The notes beneath the pieces are model-generated. The model saw nothing but the letters and a program-made list of their open reading frames with translations, was not told where the DNA came from and did no database searches. Position numbers and translations under genes: made by a program. This document shows positions 41,897 to 49,441 of a DNA stretch of 64,000 nucleotides, piece by piece. This stretch comes from Escherichia phage vB_EcoM-ZQ3, in the sequence record MW630116.1. One strand, 5' to 3'. How positions within the stretch are numbered: the first letter of the stretch is position 1; every line of letters starts with the position of its first letter.

Positions 41897-42319
41897 ATGC
41901 GAAACCAAAATAATGATATTGACTCAATGTTCGAAGAGTTCCGAAATAAGGTAAATCCACCTACGTCTTTAGTTGATTCATTACGATATGTTGCAACTGG
42001 ACGTAAATGGTACTGGTCGTCTTCTTATGAGACAACTGAATATGCAAATAACCGAAAATCTTTATTAGCCCCAGGTATTATGATTCATGATATCGGAGCT
42101 ATTGCTAAACTAGTTGCGGACCATGATATTAGATTCACTGATTTCGTTGCTCCTACGTGGTCTGTTTGTTGTTTAAACACTGAATGGGACTATATCAGTG
42201 AACGCTCTGAAGATTATTATGGTTTTAGAGATAAGCTCTTAAGGTCTAACATGTTTTATATCGATACTGAAGTTCTAGTCGATAATAAAATATTACTTTA
42301 CGTTAATCGTCGATTCTGA
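41897..42319 (+). CDS. hypothetical protein
   Basis: 140 aa from MRNQNNDIDSMFEEF; RBS AAAGGAG. Confidence 0.5.
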   Translation: MRNQNNDIDSMFEEFRNKVNPPTSLVDSLRYVATGRKWYWSSSYETTEYANNRKSLLAPGIMIHDIGAIAKLVADHDIRFTDFVAPTWSVCCLNTEWDYISERSEDYYGFRDKLLRSNMFYIDTEVLVDNKILLYVNRRF

Positions 42320-42323
42320 AACT

Positions 42324-42491
42324 ATGTATGAAGGCAAGCCTTTGCTTAAAAGAGTTGATGCTTTAAGTGCTATTGATGCGCTTTATGAAACCATGGTTGT
42401 TAGTCCTAATTTCACTAACAATTTAATCCTTGAGCAATTTATTATGGAATGTAGAGAATATGTCAAAGCCAACCCTATACATGCCAATTAA
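42324..42491 (+). CDS. small ORF ending in conserved FIMECR peptide
   Basis: 55 aa; carries the FIxECR junction motif shared with three other loci; overlaps next gene start. Confidence 0.3.
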   Translation: MYEGKPLLKRVDALSAIDALYETMVVSPNFTNNLILEQFIMECREYVKANPIHAN

Positions 42492-42855
42492 GCCCTGGGC
42501 ATACGAATACAAACGTAAATTAATCCCAAACGAAGTACTATTTGGCCCTATTTTAGCTTTAGCGTTTTTAATCTTTATGATTATAGGAGCTGTTTTAGAT
42601 TCCAATAAAGTTATATCGTCTGATGCAGCGTTTTCATTAATGTTCGTCGCACCACTTATTGTACCATTTTTATTAATGCCTATTAATTGGGCAGGATATT
42701 GGCACCAAGGCCGTCATCACAGAGCTCGAGTTCGTGAGTGGAAAGTTCAGTGCGCAAAAGCCCAAGCTCAGTATGATGAAGCTGTTAAAAAGTATGAATA
42801 CGAAGAAGCTATGGAATTCGTTAAGGAAATAAGATGCAAAAGCCTCAACTCTTAA
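42460..42855 (+). CDS. membrane protein
   Basis: 131 aa from MSKPTLYMP; two hydrophobic helices; basic C-terminus. Confidence 0.5.
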   Translation: MSKPTLYMPIKPWAYEYKRKLIPNEVLFGPILALAFLIFMIIGAVLDSNKVISSDAAFSLMFVAPLIVPFLLMPINWAGYWHQGRHHRARVREWKVQCAKAQAQYDEAVKKYEYEEAMEFVKEIRCKSLNS

Positions 42856-43085
42856 CCGTATGGCCGTCTCTTGGTGAGAACATTCTAATTTTTATTATGA
42901 GTATTGGCATGGGATTTGCCTTTGGATTAGTTGGATTTCTTATTGACGGCGTTGTGTTAGGATTTATAGGGAACACTGGTGGATTCACAGACCAATGGCA
43001 GGACCTAAGATACACCCAAGCCTTTGCATCTATCGCATCATTTTGTACTGTAAGTCTATTTTTACTACGATTTTATAAACCATAA
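42834..43085 (+). CDS. small membrane protein
   Basis: 83 aa, Gly-rich TM segments. Confidence 0.5.
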   Translation: MQKPQLLTVWPSLGENILIFIMSIGMGFAFGLVGFLIDGVVLGFIGNTGGFTDQWQDLRYTQAFASIASFCTVSLFLLRFYKP

Positions 43086-43190
43086 CAAGAAAAATAAAAA
43101 GGTTTACGCTTCTCAAATGATTAGTTATAATGAACTCCTAGCTAGACGTGAAAATGAAACAATAGAAAACTTTATTAAGGAATGTAGAAA

Positions 43191-43496
43191 ATGAGTAAGA
43201 TTATTGAAATTAAAGTACCAGAGTTTAATGATGCTAAATCCGCTTCAGATGCAATTTATAAACTTCTGAATCAAGCTGAACGTATCGAAGAAGAAGCAAC
43301 AAAGATCGCAGACCAATATGCCGTATCATTTTCTGTAGGTGATTATGGTAGTGGTCGTACTTATTATCCTAAGGGTGAAATTGTATCCCAGTGGATGAAA
43401 GATGAAATTGAAAATAATGGTGGTGATGTTAAACGTGAAGGTAATGGTTACGTTATTACTGAAGGTGCTTGGGTTTCGTCTTCTTCGATGTGCTAA
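43191..43496 (+). CDS. small protein, paralog 1 of C-terminal GxWVSSSxxC family
   Basis: 101 aa; ends GAWVSSSSMC; RBS AAGGAA. Confidence 0.55.
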   Translation: MSKIIEIKVPEFNDAKSASDAIYKLLNQAERIEEEATKIADQYAVSFSVGDYGSGRTYYPKGEIVSQWMKDEIENNGGDVKREGNGYVITEGAWVSSSSMC

Positions 43497-43505
43497 GGAA
43501 TCATT

Positions 43506-43778
43506 ATGTCTAAAGAACAAACCGAACTGGCTGAAGCCGTAGCAAAAATCTATGCAGCTATTGAGGCTGCCAAAGAAATTGCTGATAAACAAAACACAAC
43601 ATTCGACTTGTATCCGGCTTATGGTATGGGTGGAACCTATCATTCACCCGGACAACTTAAAGCCGATCTTGAACGTTGTACAAAAAACGGCTATGCTGAA
43701 TGGGCTGACGTTTACCAATACGACTACAACCTGAGCCTCGAAACTGGTGGTTGGATTGCATCTTCTCATACTTGCTAA
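43506..43778 (+). CDS. small protein, paralog 2 of C-terminal GxWVSSSxxC family
   Basis: 90 aa; ends GGWIASSHTC; preceded by TGCTAAGGAA..ATG. Confidence 0.55.
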   Translation: MSKEQTELAEAVAKIYAAIEAAKEIADKQNTTFDLYPAYGMGGTYHSPGQLKADLERCTKNGYAEWADVYQYDYNLSLETGGWIASSHTC

Positions 43779-43787
43779 GGAAACCAT

Positions 43788-43985
43788 ATGTCTCGTGAAT
43801 TAGATTGTGCTGTACGTACCGCAGTAGCTGCTCTGGAAAACCTGTTCCAAATTGCAACAGAAGAACGCGAAGAAGTTACATTGTGGATTGAAGATAACGC
43901 AGGTCTGAATCTCCAGGACGCGATCTCATTATCCAATAATAGCATTACTGTTCAAGGCTGGGTATCATCTAGTTATTCTTGCTAA
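43788..43985 (+). CDS. small protein, paralog 3 of C-terminal GxWVSSSxxC family
   Basis: 65 aa; ends QGWVSSSYSC; preceded by TGCTAAGGAA..ATG. Confidence 0.55.
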   Translation: MSRELDCAVRTAVAALENLFQIATEEREEVTLWIEDNAGLNLQDAISLSNNSITVQGWVSSSYSC

Positions 43986-43989
43986 AACA

Positions 43990-44029
43990 GTTTACAACAA
44001 GATAGGGCTATGTTATAGTAGTCCTATCA
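43990..44029 (+). promoter_or_regulatory. early promoter cassette with palindrome
   Basis: GTTTAC then GATAGGGCTA/TAGTCCTATC inverted repeat. Confidence 0.5.
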
Positions 44030-44047
44030 AATTAAATGGAGTCCACA

Positions 44048-44287
44048 ATGATTTATTACGAAAGTATCGGAACCAAAGTGGTTGGTAAAACCATTACTCG
44101 TGAAAAGTTTGCAAAGATATTCGATATGCGTTATAAAAAATCTGAACACAAAGGCATCCGATTCGAAGATGCACATTGTACAATTTGCCCTTATAATGAA
44201 GATATAAATGGTACAATCGTTCCATTGGTAGAGGCTTCACATGACGACCTCTGGGATGAATATAATATCGCATGTCGCGAAATTTAA
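44048..44287 (+). CDS. hypothetical protein
   Basis: 79 aa from MIYYESIG; GGAG RBS 7 nt upstream. Confidence 0.5.
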   Translation: MIYYESIGTKVVGKTITREKFAKIFDMRYKKSEHKGIRFEDAHCTICPYNEDINGTIVPLVEASHDDLWDEYNIACREI

Positions 44288-44312
44288 GTAATCTAAATTC
44301 GAGGAAATTATT

Positions 44313-45269
44313 ATGATGTTAGTTATTGGTTCTCGTGCACTTCACTATCACGGTCTTATTGATTCTAACGCTATCAAAAATAGTGACTGGGACTTTATTG
44401 CAGACCAAGGTTCTTGGAATGCATTCAAAAATCAAATGATGGGTGTATATGTTCATCAAGATAACCCTGATGTCCAAGTTTTCAAATGCTTCCATAACGG
44501 ACGCGAAACTCATTTTGAAGCATATATTGTTCCGGCAATCACTAATGTCCGTGAACTAGTCGGTGAACTCACTCCTGAAGATTTCACGTCTTCTTATGAC
44601 CTTTTAAAATACGCCAAGAAAAATTTGACTAAAGACCGTTTGAACGGGTTTTACTGGGCAACTCCTGAGATGTGCCTTGCAATTAAGATGTCTCATCGTT
44701 TCAAGAAAAATAATCCATTCTTTTTAAAGACTATGAACCATATTCAGTATCTTCGTGGTAAAGGTGTTAAACTGAATGATGAACTTACTGAAATTATGCT
44801 GAAACGTCAGAAAGAAACCTTGAACTATGCTCACCCAGTTCTTGACACTTCTAAAAGTGCGTTCTTTAAAGATGACATCTATACATATGACCATGATACT
44901 ATTCATGAAGCCATTGCACTAACAGACCGTCCAGCATATACATTTTATATGAAAGACGGTTCTGAAGTCATGACCTCACGCGAGAAGTTCGAATCGTTAC
45001 CAGAAATGGTCAAATTGGCCGGTGTATATGAAGAATCATGTGTACTAGCATTAGAACGTTCTCAGATTCCTAATGGCTTTGAAATCCATCCTCGTGATAG
45101 TTTTATGATGGCATTAGAAAAGGTCTGTACTTCAATCACATCAGGCTGGTTCCGTGAGTATGCCTGGGAGAACTACAGCAAAGTAGTAAGTATGTACCAA
45201 AGCTTAGGACATGATGATTACGTCAAACGTTTCAAACAAAATTTCCATATGGTAAAACCTTTCAAATAA
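44313..45269 (+). CDS. hypothetical protein with possible Pol-beta-type nucleotidyltransferase N-terminal motif
   Basis: 318 aa; N-terminus VIGSRALHYHGLIDSNAIKNSDWDFIAD fits hGS...D-x-D pattern loosely. Confidence 0.5.
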   Translation: MMLVIGSRALHYHGLIDSNAIKNSDWDFIADQGSWNAFKNQMMGVYVHQDNPDVQVFKCFHNGRETHFEAYIVPAITNVRELVGELTPEDFTSSYDLLKYAKKNLTKDRLNGFYWATPEMCLAIKMSHRFKKNNPFFLKTMNHIQYLRGKGVKLNDELTEIMLKRQKETLNYAHPVLDTSKSAFFKDDIYTYDHDTIHEAIALTDRPAYTFYMKDGSEVMTSREKFESLPEMVKLAGVYEESCVLALERSQIPNGFEIHPRDSFMMALEKVCTSITSGWFREYAWENYSKVVSMYQSLGHDDYVKRFKQNFHMVKPFK

Positions 45270-45282
45270 TTTCACCAAACTG

Positions 45283-45322
45283 TTTACAAGGTCTGTAGTT
45301 GTTGATACTATAGACCTATCAA
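45283..45322 (+). promoter_or_regulatory. early promoter cassette
   Basis: GTTTAC...TACTAT with AGGTCT/AGACCT inverted repeat. Confidence 0.5.
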
Positions 45323-45348
45323 AACAAATGAGTGAATGGAGATACAAA

Positions 45349-45549
45349 ATGACTACTTTGAATAAACGTTTCGGTAAAGCTAAACCTGGCTGTGCAGCAG
45401 AACGTCGTTACATTTTCGCTCAGTTAGAAGATGTAGAGTATCAGATTAATCAAGTTCACATTACTGGCATCGAGCCTATGTGTGGCCTTGAAGCTCTTCG
45501 TGAAGTTCGTGACGGGTATCGTCGTGATATCGAAGAAATGTCAAAATAA
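45349..45549 (+). CDS. hypothetical protein
   Basis: 66 aa from MTTLNKRFGK; GGAG RBS. Confidence 0.5.
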   Translation: MTTLNKRFGKAKPGCAAERRYIFAQLEDVEYQINQVHITGIEPMCGLEALREVRDGYRRDIEEMSK

Positions 45550-45589
45550 GTGTACAAACTGATAGGGCTATGTTATAGTAGTCCTATTA
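45550..45589 (+). promoter_or_regulatory. early promoter cassette (variant -35 GTGTAC)
   Basis: near-identical to cassette at 43990. Confidence 0.45.
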
Positions 45590-45607
45590 AAACATGAGGA
45601 GAATAAT

Positions 45608-45913
45608 ATGAAATTAACAGAAACCAACCGAATTGGCCTTTTAACGATACTTACATCACCTTTTTATGCTGTGCTTTCTGTTGCAGTATTACAAAAGGCC
45701 TATGGCATGGACGGTGTTCCTGGTTGTGTATTTTTATCACCGTTTTTGTTATTAGTTGGTGCTCTGTTATTATACGCGACAACAGGTTTCGACCATAATG
45801 TTTGGGTCAAGTTTAAACGTAGATTAACTGAAGAAGAACACGCTGAAGCTCGTAAAAAAGCTATTGAATCTACCAATCTAGAAAATTTCATTAAAGAATG
45901 TCGAGGAAAATAA
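45608..45913 (+). CDS. membrane protein ending in conserved FIKECR peptide
   Basis: 101 aa; two TM helices; C-terminus ENFIKECRGK. Confidence 0.55.
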   Translation: MKLTETNRIGLLTILTSPFYAVLSVAVLQKAYGMDGVPGCVFLSPFLLLVGALLLYATTGFDHNVWVKFKRRLTEEEHAEARKKAIESTNLENFIKECRGK

Positions 45914-45914
45914 T

Positions 45915-46601
45915 ATGAATAGTTCTAAAGTGTTTAATAGTCAAGCTCGTGCAGTAGGTGGTTTTGCTCATGCGATTAAAAATGACCAGATTAAAAACGA
46001 GCCTATGTTCTTCAACTGTAGTTTAGAATTTGCTTATAATAACGGTGGTCCTATTACTCGCAGCTTCATCATGAACTTGCCTGATGATTGGAACACCGAC
46101 CAGGTTGTATTTGATTCACGGGTCCACATGCTGATGCCTGGTTGGTACCCTGCTATCCCGGGTTATCACCATGATGATGTACCACGCCCGGATATTCCGG
46201 TTGGTCAACACTTTATTACTGCAGGACAACCTGATTATGACAATCCTCGCTATTTGTCTGAACATATTCTTGGTCTTGTTAACGCTGATGTGTGTCCTAC
46301 TCATTTTGCAACAGGAACTGCAGAGTTCAGTCAGATTCCTGATGGCGAACTTATCTATCGCCAGTGGCACAAAGAAGTCCTCGAAAAAATTGAAAAAGGT
46401 GAACTAGAGAAATGGGAAGCTCCAGATCGTACTCTTCTTCAGTTTGATTGGCAAACATGGCACACTGGTTCTCGTGCAATTAGTAATGGATGGCGTTGGT
46501 TCGGACGTGTATCTCGTAATACAGACCGAGTTAAAAAGATTACCAATGAAATTCGTGTCAATGCTCAAGTTTATCTGGAATTCCCTATGGAAGGCTGGTA
46601 A
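45915..46601 (+). CDS. hypothetical protein
   Basis: 228 aa; His/Trp-rich; no motif recognised. Confidence 0.55.
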   Translation: MNSSKVFNSQARAVGGFAHAIKNDQIKNEPMFFNCSLEFAYNNGGPITRSFIMNLPDDWNTDQVVFDSRVHMLMPGWYPAIPGYHHDDVPRPDIPVGQHFITAGQPDYDNPRYLSEHILGLVNADVCPTHFATGTAEFSQIPDGELIYRQWHKEVLEKIEKGELEKWEAPDRTLLQFDWQTWHTGSRAISNGWRWFGRVSRNTDRVKKITNEIRVNAQVYLEFPMEGW

Positions 46602-46694
46602 TGATTAACAAAACATATTGGTCTTAATATAGACGATGGCAACGAAGGTATTTCATACTATTCAGTAGATTGGACAGGATGTCCATCCTACTTA

Positions 46695-47006
46695 GTGAAA
46701 CATATTTGCCAAGAATTTAAAATCGACCAGCCAGCAGGTATTATCGTGAACAGATACATTAATGGATATCAACCTATCGATGAAGTAATACGAACAACTC
46801 AAGCTGAGCTTGAAAAGTTTTTCAATAAGTGCCAATGGATAACAGGATGGATTATATTTGTACCGTCTATATGGTTTTTCAGTACTAAGGTGAGTTCTTT
46901 CGGTTTTGTTGATATTATTGCTATCTTATTAGCATCTAGTATCATAAGTGTTGTTGGTGGCATCATTGGCGGCGGTACCGCCGCCATCATTATTAAATCT
47001 TATTAA
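46695..47006 (+). CDS. hypothetical membrane protein (GTG start, uncertain)
   Basis: 103 aa; Gly-rich hydrophobic C-terminus; no convincing RBS. Confidence 0.35.
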   Translation: MKHICQEFKIDQPAGIIVNRYINGYQPIDEVIRTTQAELEKFFNKCQWITGWIIFVPSIWFFSTKVSSFGFVDIIAILLASSIISVVGGIIGGGTAAIIIKSY

Positions 47007-47091
47007 AAGTAGTTTACAAGAACATAAAGCCAAGATAAAGGCCAAGAATAATGAAGTTGAACGTTTTATTACCGAATGCAGGAATTTGAGA

Positions 47092-47327
47092 TGAGTATAG
47101 CAATTTACATTAAATCAGAATCATGTGATAGTTATCTGTACACATACGATAAAGACGTGTCAGAAGAAAAAATCAAAGACGATCTTAATATGGACCTTGA
47201 TATGTTCTGTCCTATTGCAGATTACAAACTTGCGGTCTCTAATAGTGAAAGTCCATCTAAAGAAACGCGCATTGAAGAATTTATGTCCGAATTAATGGCT
47301 AAATCATGGGACCGAGATGATGAGTAA
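47092..47327 (+). CDS. hypothetical acidic protein
   Basis: 78 aa from MSIAIYIK; RBS AGGAATTTGAG. Confidence 0.45.
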
Positions 47328-49138: not shown

Positions 49139-49441
49139 ATGAAAACATATCAAGAATTTATTACTGAAGCGCGAGTGAGTGCAGGTAAATTAGAAGCCGC
49201 TATAAATAAAAAGGCCCATTCATTTCACGATTTGTCCGATAAAGACCGTAAGAAACTTGTAAGCCTTTATATTGACAAAGAGCGTATTCTCGCTCTTCCT
49301 GGCGCTAATGAAGGTAAACAGGCCAAGCCTTTGAATGCTGTTGAAAAGAAAATTGATAACTTTGCTTCTAAATTCGGTATGTCTATGGATGACCTTCAGC
49401 AAGCGGCTATCGAAGCAGCTAAAGTAATTAAAGGTAAATAA
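49139..49441 (+). CDS. internal protein (IPII/IPIII-like)
   Basis: 100 aa from MKTYQEFITE-ARVSAGKLEAA; canonical capsid-targeting sequence. Confidence 0.7.
   Translation: MKTYQEFITEARVSAGKLEAAINKKAHSFHDLSDKDRKKLVSLYIDKERILALPGANEGKQAKPLNAVEKKIDNFASKFGMSMDDLQQAAIEAAKVIKGK

Follow-up and report, generated by a model that had tools for sequence, protein, structure and literature searches.

Deletion between short direct repeats is familiar in phage T4 from the classical rII deletion studies. In T4-type phages, hyperplastic regions hold most of the genes of unknown function. Short repeats described in such phages include the promoter-early stem-loop (PeSL), an intergenic element made up of a sigma-70 promoter together with an AT-rich tract and a stem-loop terminator (Arbiol et al. 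2010, PMC2839356; Comeau et al. 2014, PMC4122927); neither of these two papers mentions e.2, e.3 or nudE. A different short element, the capsid-targeting sequence (CTS), comprises the N-terminal 10 residues, of which residues 4, 7, 8 and 10 are functional, and processing by gp21 depends on Ile or Leu as residue 8 and Glu as residue 10, with Asp blocking the reaction (PMC9026906). The CTS of T4 internal proteins has been read as a portable address tag (Mullaney and Black 1996, as reviewed in PMC9026906). Here we analyzed a stretch of 64,000 nucleotides (nt) from Escherichia phage vB_EcoM-ZQ3 (MW630116.1; hereafter the window, numbered from its first letter), in which the peptide F-I-x-E-C-R recurs at gene junctions between e.6 and nudE. 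The peptide is the conserved C-terminal tail of a set of early proteins and, when tested feature by feature, belongs to neither the PeSL nor the CTS.

The tail peptide and its carriers

The 42–47.6 kb part of the window is about 96% identical to Mosigvirus (RB69-like, T4-type) coliphages, with the + strand in the direction of early transcription. It is the e.6–nudE hyperplastic cluster of T4-type phages, and the proteins carrying the tail are non-essential early proteins. The initial annotation had reported F-I-x-E-C-R, each time preceded by E-x, at four gene junctions, and the positions and codons of all four sites proved exact (Table 1). A search for FI.ECR in the six frames of the window gave exactly these four matches, all on the + strand and within 4.7 kb, whereas 100 shuffles of the window gave a mean of 0.02 and a maximum of 1. 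The count of four holds for the strict form only, since a fifth, degenerate copy in the e.4 tail (FVKEIR, with Cys replaced by Ile) had been missed. The five copies lie within the annotated coding sequences of e.5, e.4, e.3, the homologue of RB69 ORF133c and e.2, all of which are single intact genes with a C-terminal motif in SA35RD, phage 55 and RB69. Two copies had been interpreted differently in the initial annotation. The open reading frame (ORF) of 25 amino acids at 43118, counted among short upstream ORFs, is the 3′ end of e.3, a full-length gene that is frameshifted here, and the supposed remnant without a start codon at 47065 is the 3′ end of e.2, a single intact ORF in relatives. Both appearances arise because e.3 and e.2 are broken by indels in this phage, and the e.5 copy likewise belongs to a full-length gene that is frameshifted here rather than to a short upstream ORF.

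Related phages, which the initial annotation had suggested searching for small ORFs ending in ECR, have [FW][ILV]xxCR C-termini in six genera. The general form is hydrophobic-x-x-[FW]-[ILV]-x-x-C-R, found on 3–6 proteins per genome (for example ...STNLENFIKECRGK and ...FDSFIKGCRK). We collected 34 distinct copies from 10 genomes of the 6 genera, and all 34 are C-terminal, lying 1–13 residues from the end. Variants were found in JS10 (Dhakavirus; FIKECR, FIKECK, FLEYCR and FIEECR), VR7 (Gaprivervirus; FIKEIR, FIKECK and FIEECR), Q7622 (Kanagawavirus; FVDQCR, FIKNVR, FIQMCR and, twice, FVKGCR) and Potts1 (Marfavirus; FIKHCR, FLKEMR, FIKYCR, FLELCR, WIKGCR and WVKGCR). Distant full-length homologues of e.2, retrieved by a profile search of 1.8 billion representatives, end in [FW]IxxCR in 10 of 10 cases, each homologue representing a separate 50%-identity cluster. 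Word-indexed homology searches with ORF133c and e.2 returned close relatives only, and an IMG/VR scan with e.5 returned only 6 loci. We found nothing on the function of e.2–e.6 or on the tail in the searchable literature; the tail is a genuine motif that we did not find described there.

T4 itself carries the motif at the orthologous places in e.5 (FVKECR), e.4 (FVKESR) and e.3 (FVIDCR). The remaining copy, FITECRKLK followed by a stop, lies in an unannotated frame between "e.2" (102 amino acids) and nudE. Other Tequatroviruses have an intact e.2 of 162 amino acids that ends in a FITECRKLK-type tail, and therefore the T4 annotation of e.2 reflects a frameshifted form of the 162-amino-acid gene. 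The "intergenic" e.2–nudE gap of T4 (NC_000866, 67491–67651, minus strand) encodes the C-terminal part of e.2 (...KIFDEKKYAQNLNNFITECRKLK, then stop), which corrects the annotation by assigning the gap to the tail of the longer protein; the T4T record divides the gene into e.2a and e.2b. Across the whole T4 genome, a relaxed motif occurs near the end of a long ORF at e.2, e.3 and e.5 only (3 found, 0.22 expected), and the motif is thus specific to the e.2–e.5 cluster.

The codons of the tail revealed what is being conserved. Among the 34 copies, Phe is encoded by TTT in 23 and TTC in 9, with Trp in the other 2; Cys is encoded by TGT in 15 and TGC in 13, with I, S, V or M in 6; and Arg uses five codons (AGA 13, AGG 7, CGT 7, CGA 5 and CGC 1), with Lys in one copy. 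For the four conserved codons (F, I/V, C and R), the proportion of synonymous differences (pS) is 0.91 and that of nonsynonymous differences (pN) is 0.20 by the Nei-Gojobori method (NG86). The pN/pS ratio rises to 0.52 at the two x codons and to 1.07 over the six codons upstream, and the residue at position −3 is hydrophobic in 28 of the 34 copies. Of the 27 nt that encode each of the two adjacent FVKGCRNGR tails of Q7622, 5 differ between them, and all of these changes are synonymous. The five motif regions of the window fold no better than shuffled sequences (z from +1.96 to −1.22), share no common structure and leave the motif bases mostly unpaired, and they have no Rfam match at E up to 1. 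Purifying selection acts on the tail peptide, not on RNA. This upholds the proposal made from the codons of the four strict copies, and the codon-level comparison suggested with it, now run on the aligned copies, showed conserved replacement sites and randomized synonymous sites.

Junctions, crossovers and known elements

Of the 34 copies, 30 end no more than 12 nt from the next annotated start, the exceptions being at 23, 31, 62 and 65 nt, and the window copies end from −1 to 10 nt upstream of the next ATG (42460, 42834, 43191, 45915 and 47091). The Shine-Dalgarno sequence often lies in the x-x codons (AAGGAA) or in those of R-K/G (AGGAAA, GAGGAAAA), and the tail gene's stop codon often overlaps the next start as ATGA or AAATGA. 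Because the genes are tightly packed, the same codons carry the tail and the next gene's Shine-Dalgarno sequence and spacer, and it is because of this overlap that the motif marks gene junctions. The codons of Cys and Arg usually fall in the spacer, and the overlap with initiation does not explain why these two residues are conserved.

The DNA of the tail has also been a crossover point. In L009, PST, ZN18 and PP01-type Tequatroviruses, e.3 runs straight into nudE and e.2 is gone; L009, one of the six IMG/VR loci, was decisive. The sequence left of the junction is 100% identical to T4 e.3 and the sequence to its right is 100% identical to the T4 e.2-tail/nudE region, with the switch point falling within TGCAGGAAA (Cys-Arg-Lys codons), which is common to the e.3 and e.2 tails. 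The contiguous junction is present in at least 30 records. Overall, the e.2 body is kept in about 448 of about 505 Tequatrovirus records and absent in about 57 (~11%); since each of the five other genera examined has e.2, the absence represents a deletion. Motif-to-motif crossover is shown for one event, which is widespread in nature. The deletion could occur at this point, in register and with removal of a whole gene, because tails are directly repeated at neighbouring 3′ ends.

Other indels in the block were traced to other sequences. A Mosigvirus indel at 45289–45549 is flanked by PeSL-like promoter/stem-loop repeats; a Mosigvirus deletion of the e.3 body (42851–43101) leaves the internal promoter and an orphan tail; and Shigella phage phi25-307 lost ORF130c through GAGATGA, a stop/start overlap found at both junctions. 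In that phage (our locus L021, 4554–5018 and about 5011), the e.2 tail abuts nudE, as it does in T4, and ORF132c and the first 28 nt of e.2 are also missing. The PeSL-like promoter and stem-loop repeat (GTTTACA...ATAGGGCTATGTTATAGTAGTCCTAT) has three copies in the window, the last two of which flank an ORF of 66 amino acids that is absent in RB69, ESh15, phi25-307, AV109 and L004. We also considered a joint at the ORF133c motif, as cross-genus megablast matches start at 45893–45903, and rejected it: the upstream genes of JS10, Q7622, VR7 and Potts1 lack the motif there, and only part of the region of the ribosome-binding site and start is shared (AAAATAWTATG, with GAGG in front of it in three of the four). 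The motif is thus one of several usable boundary repeats, not a dedicated recombination site. The earlier suggestion that it is the joint of a recombining module stands for the loss of e.2, where the crossover lies inside the motif codons, and fails for the other indels, which lie at PeSL-like repeats or GAGATGA.

The tail resembles the PeSL in being a short repeat at gene boundaries of plastic, ORFan-rich early regions, with the Shine-Dalgarno sequence and start of the downstream gene at its 3′ edge. Recombination between PeSL copies deletes or swaps whole genes, and for the tail the loss of e.2 is the only such case found; PeSL-like elements do occur in the same block (43991–44019, 45283–45311 and 45551–45579), where they bound one indel. 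Unlike the PeSL, however, the tail is coding and therefore not intergenic, is conserved in its amino acids rather than its nucleotides, and leaves only about 9 identical nt in which a crossover can take place. On the + strand, none of the five motif copies coincides with a promoter-like site, the nearest such site being at 43103–43131, and no terminator-like site or stable stem-loop was found at the motifs. The losses of e.2 (TGCAGGAAA) and ORF130c (GAGATGA) are similar to rII-type deletions in being precise and in using direct repeats of 7–10 nt. They differ in that the repeats here are functional, being either a selected tail or a stop/start overlap, and lie at equivalent points of neighbouring genes, so that the product keeps its reading frame, tail and downstream initiation region. 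It follows that gene-sized indels in hyperplastic regions are possible without PeSLs, as any short repeat at equivalent points of neighbouring genes can bring about an in-register loss that keeps the downstream initiation region.

With the CTS, the tail shares a length of about ten residues, its occurrence on divergent accessory proteins of the same phages, and F-I-x-E with Arg two residues later. The CTS, however, is N-terminal, is removed by gp21 and resides on internal proteins of the virion, whereas the tail lies at the C-terminus, has a Glu that varies between genera, and belongs to proteins predicted to be early and either membrane or cytoplasmic. The combination [ILV]-x-E is present in 20 of the 34 copies, the other 14 having D, G, Y, N, M, Q, H or L in place of Glu. 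The window also contains three genes with CTS-like N-termini (39662, 48294 and 49139), presumably encoding internal head proteins, and the gene at 49139 reads FITEAR, one residue from the FITECR of the e.2 tail.

Weighing the explanations

On balance, we favour the view that the motif is a tail of early proteins that is held by selection on the peptide, that may serve as a docking helix, and whose DNA has occasionally been a crossover point. The motif is the translated C-terminal tail of e.5, e.4, e.3, ORF133c and e.2, with further carriers in other genera; purifying selection on the protein maintains its core, after which come 1–13 residues that are mostly basic or polar. In most carriers, the tail is predicted to end a long charged helix that follows two hydrophobic segments, which would place it in the cytoplasm beside the membrane. 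A short docking helix at this position could let dissimilar bodies engage one common cytoplasmic partner. Like C-terminal docking peptides and other short linear motifs, the tail is a short amphipathic helix with few invariant positions, varied bodies and purifying selection; it differs from them in that the genes of all its carriers are neighbours within a single phage cluster. The arrangement hydrophobic-x-x-F-[IL]-[KR] is the shape of the conserved C-terminal peptide of FtsZ, which offers a tentative lead for the target. A stronger version, which we consider unlikely, is that of a dual-purpose module, in which a portable tag that addresses a shifting group of early proteins to a common membrane-proximal target in the cytoplasm doubles as a repeat over the next gene's ribosome-binding site and allows in-frame loss, gain or exchange of bodies. 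If true, it would be a coding, exon-shuffling-like counterpart of PeSL cassettes.

How far the carriers are related beyond the tail bears directly on this view. Family-versus-family comparison by hhalign gave probabilities of 85–93% for several pairs. When the tail was trimmed, only two pairs stayed above 2.6%, namely e.2 and the gene after it (74%) and e.3 and e.4 (21%); all the alignments are small. The initial annotation had suggested a C-terminal tag on otherwise unrelated proteins; the tag is borne out in essence, and for most pairs, though not for these two, no further relationship was detected. Most carriers have the same layout, in which a pair of hydrophobic segments is followed by a basic juxtamembrane stretch and then by a long charged helix with the motif at its end. 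The e.5 family and proteins of 92–94 and 106–109 amino acids from Q7622, Potts1 and JS10 are soluble. The structure model of ORF133c contains only helices, with a single helix spanning residues 39–100, the motif included, at a predicted local distance difference test (pLDDT) score of about 70, and that of e.2 was unusable (pLDDT 37). Swapping of bodies in the slot after e.6 was considered and rejected, because the proteins there look like one very divergent e.5 family.

Several explanations that give the tail a role at the junction itself were compared with the one we favour. In one, the conservation is nucleic-acid based, and an initiation or regulatory RNA element or structure for the next gene makes the peptide incidental. 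The closeness of most copies to the next start, the Shine-Dalgarno sequences spelled by tail codons, and the location of the e.3 copy in the 5′ leader of the transcript from the promoter-like site at 43103–43131 are consistent with this idea, but third positions and the first position of Arg vary freely while the amino acids stay constant, the Shine-Dalgarno sequence falls in different codons in different copies, four copies lie 23–65 nt from the next start, and there is neither a shared fold nor an Rfam match. The codon pattern largely refutes this explanation, which we regard as highly improbable. Alternatively, the selected peptide could be a nascent-chain signal by which termination is delayed and re-initiation at the overlapping downstream start is favoured (translational coupling). 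Such a role fits a peptide whose position is tied to the next start, and many junctions are of the ATGA or AAATGA kind. Known arrest peptides, however, act at a fixed distance from the stalled codon, whereas Arg here precedes the stop by anything from 1 to 13 residues, and the same four copies lie 23–65 nt from the next start; we therefore consider coupling very unlikely. That the motif is chiefly a recombination joint, the coding equivalent of a PeSL cassette, maintained for the excision, insertion and spread of the gene cassettes that it bounds, is somewhat easier to entertain and still quite unlikely. In its favor, e.2 of Tequatroviruses lies between two direct copies of the motif and is precisely absent when lost, the tail-body-tail layout recurs in Q7622 and Potts1, and the block is highly plastic. 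Yet the perfect identity amounts to only 9–10 nt, and synonymous divergence between copies of the same genome has lowered the DNA homology, whereas selection for recombination would have the opposite effect. Moreover, the other five mapped indels of the block end at PeSL-like repeats, the GAGATGA overlap or unrelated points, and the conservation of amino acids across six genera is left unexplained.

Two further explanations concern the kinship of the tail. A signal for capsid targeting or gp21 processing, akin to the CTS of internal proteins (MKTYQEFIAE/AR, with cleavage at the slash), is suggested by the alignment of Y-x-x-F-I-x-E-x-R, which includes the functional CTS residues, with hydrophobic-x-x-F-I-x-E-C-R, and an internal-protein gene of the window starts MKTYQEFITEAR (49139). 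This idea is hardly credible, and is the least probable of those considered, given that the two peptides lie at opposite ends of their proteins, that the Glu of the cleavage position is missing in 14 of 34 copies (T4 e.3 has Asp, which blocks CTS processing), that the carriers are predicted early membrane proteins, and that chance alone would produce about 3 matches to a loose F[ILVM]xExR in a window of this size. The carriers could instead be old tandem paralogues of one small membrane-protein family, with the tail being simply the slowest-evolving segment rather than a tag that unrelated proteins acquired. This is a possibility to be taken seriously, although we hold it to be less probable than not. 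The layout of two hydrophobic segments, charged helix and tail is common to e.3, e.4, ORF133c, the gene after e.2 and the C-terminal half of e.2, ORF133c weakly matches the e.2 PHROG over the membrane-plus-tail half, the two pairs named above keep probability after trimming, and all copies lie in one cluster. On the other side, the soluble carriers also bear the tail, and most trimmed comparisons are at or below 2%, though small alignments have little power. Descent from one family is a matter of origin, and the tail could be the functional core in that case too.

Some observations weigh against the docking-tail view that we favour. The docking role of the predicted helix is pure inference on our part, and translation of the tail is taken from the conservation of the ORFs. 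The structure models are of low to moderate confidence. Neither Cys, which is replaced in 6 of 34 copies, nor Arg, which is Lys in one, is absolutely required. Recombination maps to the motif in one event only, the other indels of the block using other repeats, and the proteins of the e.5 slot look like a single divergent family rather than exchanged bodies. If the membrane carriers, with their common layout, are ancient paralogues whose bodies have become too different to be recognized as related, the term "portable tag" would overstate the case, although the tail would then still be the one strongly constrained part of them. A tail on 3–6 proteins per genome in at least six genera provides a handle for finding a common partner, as it could be used as bait, and such a partner would give e.2, e.3, e.4, e.5 and their relatives a first function together.

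The locus and its neighbouring features

In RB69/T4 names, the gene order is e.6, e.5, e.4, e.3, ORF139c, 137c, 136c, 135c, 134c, an ORF of 66 amino acids, ORF133c, ORF132c, e.2, ORF130c, nudE, e (lysozyme), an internal-protein gene and denV. The coordinates are summarized in Table 1.

Table 1. Features of the e.6–nudE block in the window. C-termini are written up to the stop codon.
Feature	Position	Strand	Details
e.5 homologue	41897..42491	+	198–200 amino acids in relatives; phrog_2607; split here; ends ...EQFIMECREYVKANPIHAN; intact relatives end ...EQFIMECREYVKANPIHAK
e.4 homologue	42460..42855	+	131 amino acids from T4-type start MSKPTLY; phrog_2604; intact relatives end ...EFVKEIRCKSLNS
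e.3 homologue	42834..43193	+	119 amino acids in relatives; phrog_2330; split here; ends ...ENFIKECRK
RB69 ORF133c homologue	45608..45913	+	101 amino acids, intact; phrog_9798; ends ...ENFIKECRGK
e.2 homologue	46601..47094	+	163 amino acids in relatives; phrog_2203; split here; ends ...ERFITECRNLR
Motif copy 1, FIMECR	42438–42455	+	TTT ATT ATG GAA TGT AGA; 11 residues before e.5 stop; 4 nt before e.4 ATG (42460)
Degenerate copy, FVKEIR	42817–42834	+	e.4 tail; last base is the A of e.3 ATG
Motif copy 2, FIKECR	43171–43188	+	TTT ATT AAG GAA TGT AGA; e.3 tail; AAGGAA is the Shine-Dalgarno sequence for ORF139c, whose ATG (43191) overlaps e.3 stop as ATGA
Motif copy 3, FIKECR	45887–45904	+	TTC ATT AAA GAA TGT CGA; ORF133c tail; GAGGAAAATAATATG after it is the ribosome-binding site and start of ORF132c homologue (45915)
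Motif copy 4, FITECR	47065–47082	+	TTT ATT ACC GAA TGC AGG; e.2 tail; 8 nt before ORF130c homologue ATG (47091), which overlaps e.2 stop (ATGA)
Promoter-like site, strong sigma-70-type	43103–43131	+	TTTACG-17-TATAAT; in 3′ part of e.3
Indel, −2 in A run	42286		e.5
Indel, +1	43052		e.3
Indels, +1 and +1	46624, 46995		e.2
Indel, −1	47534		nudE
ORF139c, 137c and 136c homologues	43191–43985		second shared C-terminal tail
PeSL-like repeats	43984–44031, 45282–45320, 45549–45594		promoter and stem-loop
ORF134c	44313–45269
ORF of 66 amino acids	45349–45549		between the last two PeSL-like repeats
ORF132c	45915–46601

The start of e.4 is set at 42481 by some annotators, and its length is 124–131 amino acids depending on the start chosen. 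In the protein, a basic helical tail comes after two segments predicted to be hydrophobic; ORF133c has two hydrophobic helices and a charged helix, and e.2 is composed of a soluble N-domain, a membrane segment and the tail. The promoter-like site in e.3, about 40 nt upstream of motif copy 2, is an annotated promoter in SA35RD and is kept in phages without the e.3 body. A Pfam search gave no significant match for the five carriers or most of their neighbours, ORF134c being assigned DUF7275 and DUF7277; PF26896 appears as a precomputed Pfam accession on matches of the e.2 homologue. The PHROGs matches of the carriers are to families of unknown function only. The label "sulfurtransferase" is attached to e.4 in UniRef and several GenBank records, with no Pfam or PHROGs support for any function.

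Compared with SA35RD and phage 55, the window has five frame-breaking indels, each of 1–2 nt in a run of identical bases, and repairing the five in silico gave full-length proteins. They fall within 5.3 kb. About 36 kb of late genes contain no uncompensated frameshift, and about 15 kb of other early genes contain isolated 1-nt indels only, which by their context lie beside start codons or at the ends of alignment blocks. The exact sequences of the truncated N-terminal fragment of e.5 and of the truncated nudE product were found only in the vB_EcoM-ZQ3 record. The frameshifts may reflect real decay of the cluster in this phage or a local error of assembly or sequencing.

Among the neighbouring genes, ORF134c and ORF132c are the segments of the block conserved at the nucleotide level across the other genera matched. 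Both are matched in, for example, Dhakavirus, Gaprivervirus and Marfavirus, and ORF132c alone in Kanagawavirus. One record labels ORF134c a nucleotidyltransferase and ORF132c a phytanoyl-CoA dioxygenase. A second shared C-terminal tail lies adjacent to the first, on the ORF139c, 137c and 136c homologues, which end in ...GAWVSSSSMC, ...GGWIASSHTC and ...QGWVSSSYSC, respectively; these are paralogues, two of which match phrog_899. Proteins with this tail number 3–6 per genome in JS10, VR7, Q7622 and Potts1, with variants such as ...WYPSSC and ...FWYSSSMQNC, and Cys is invariably the last residue.

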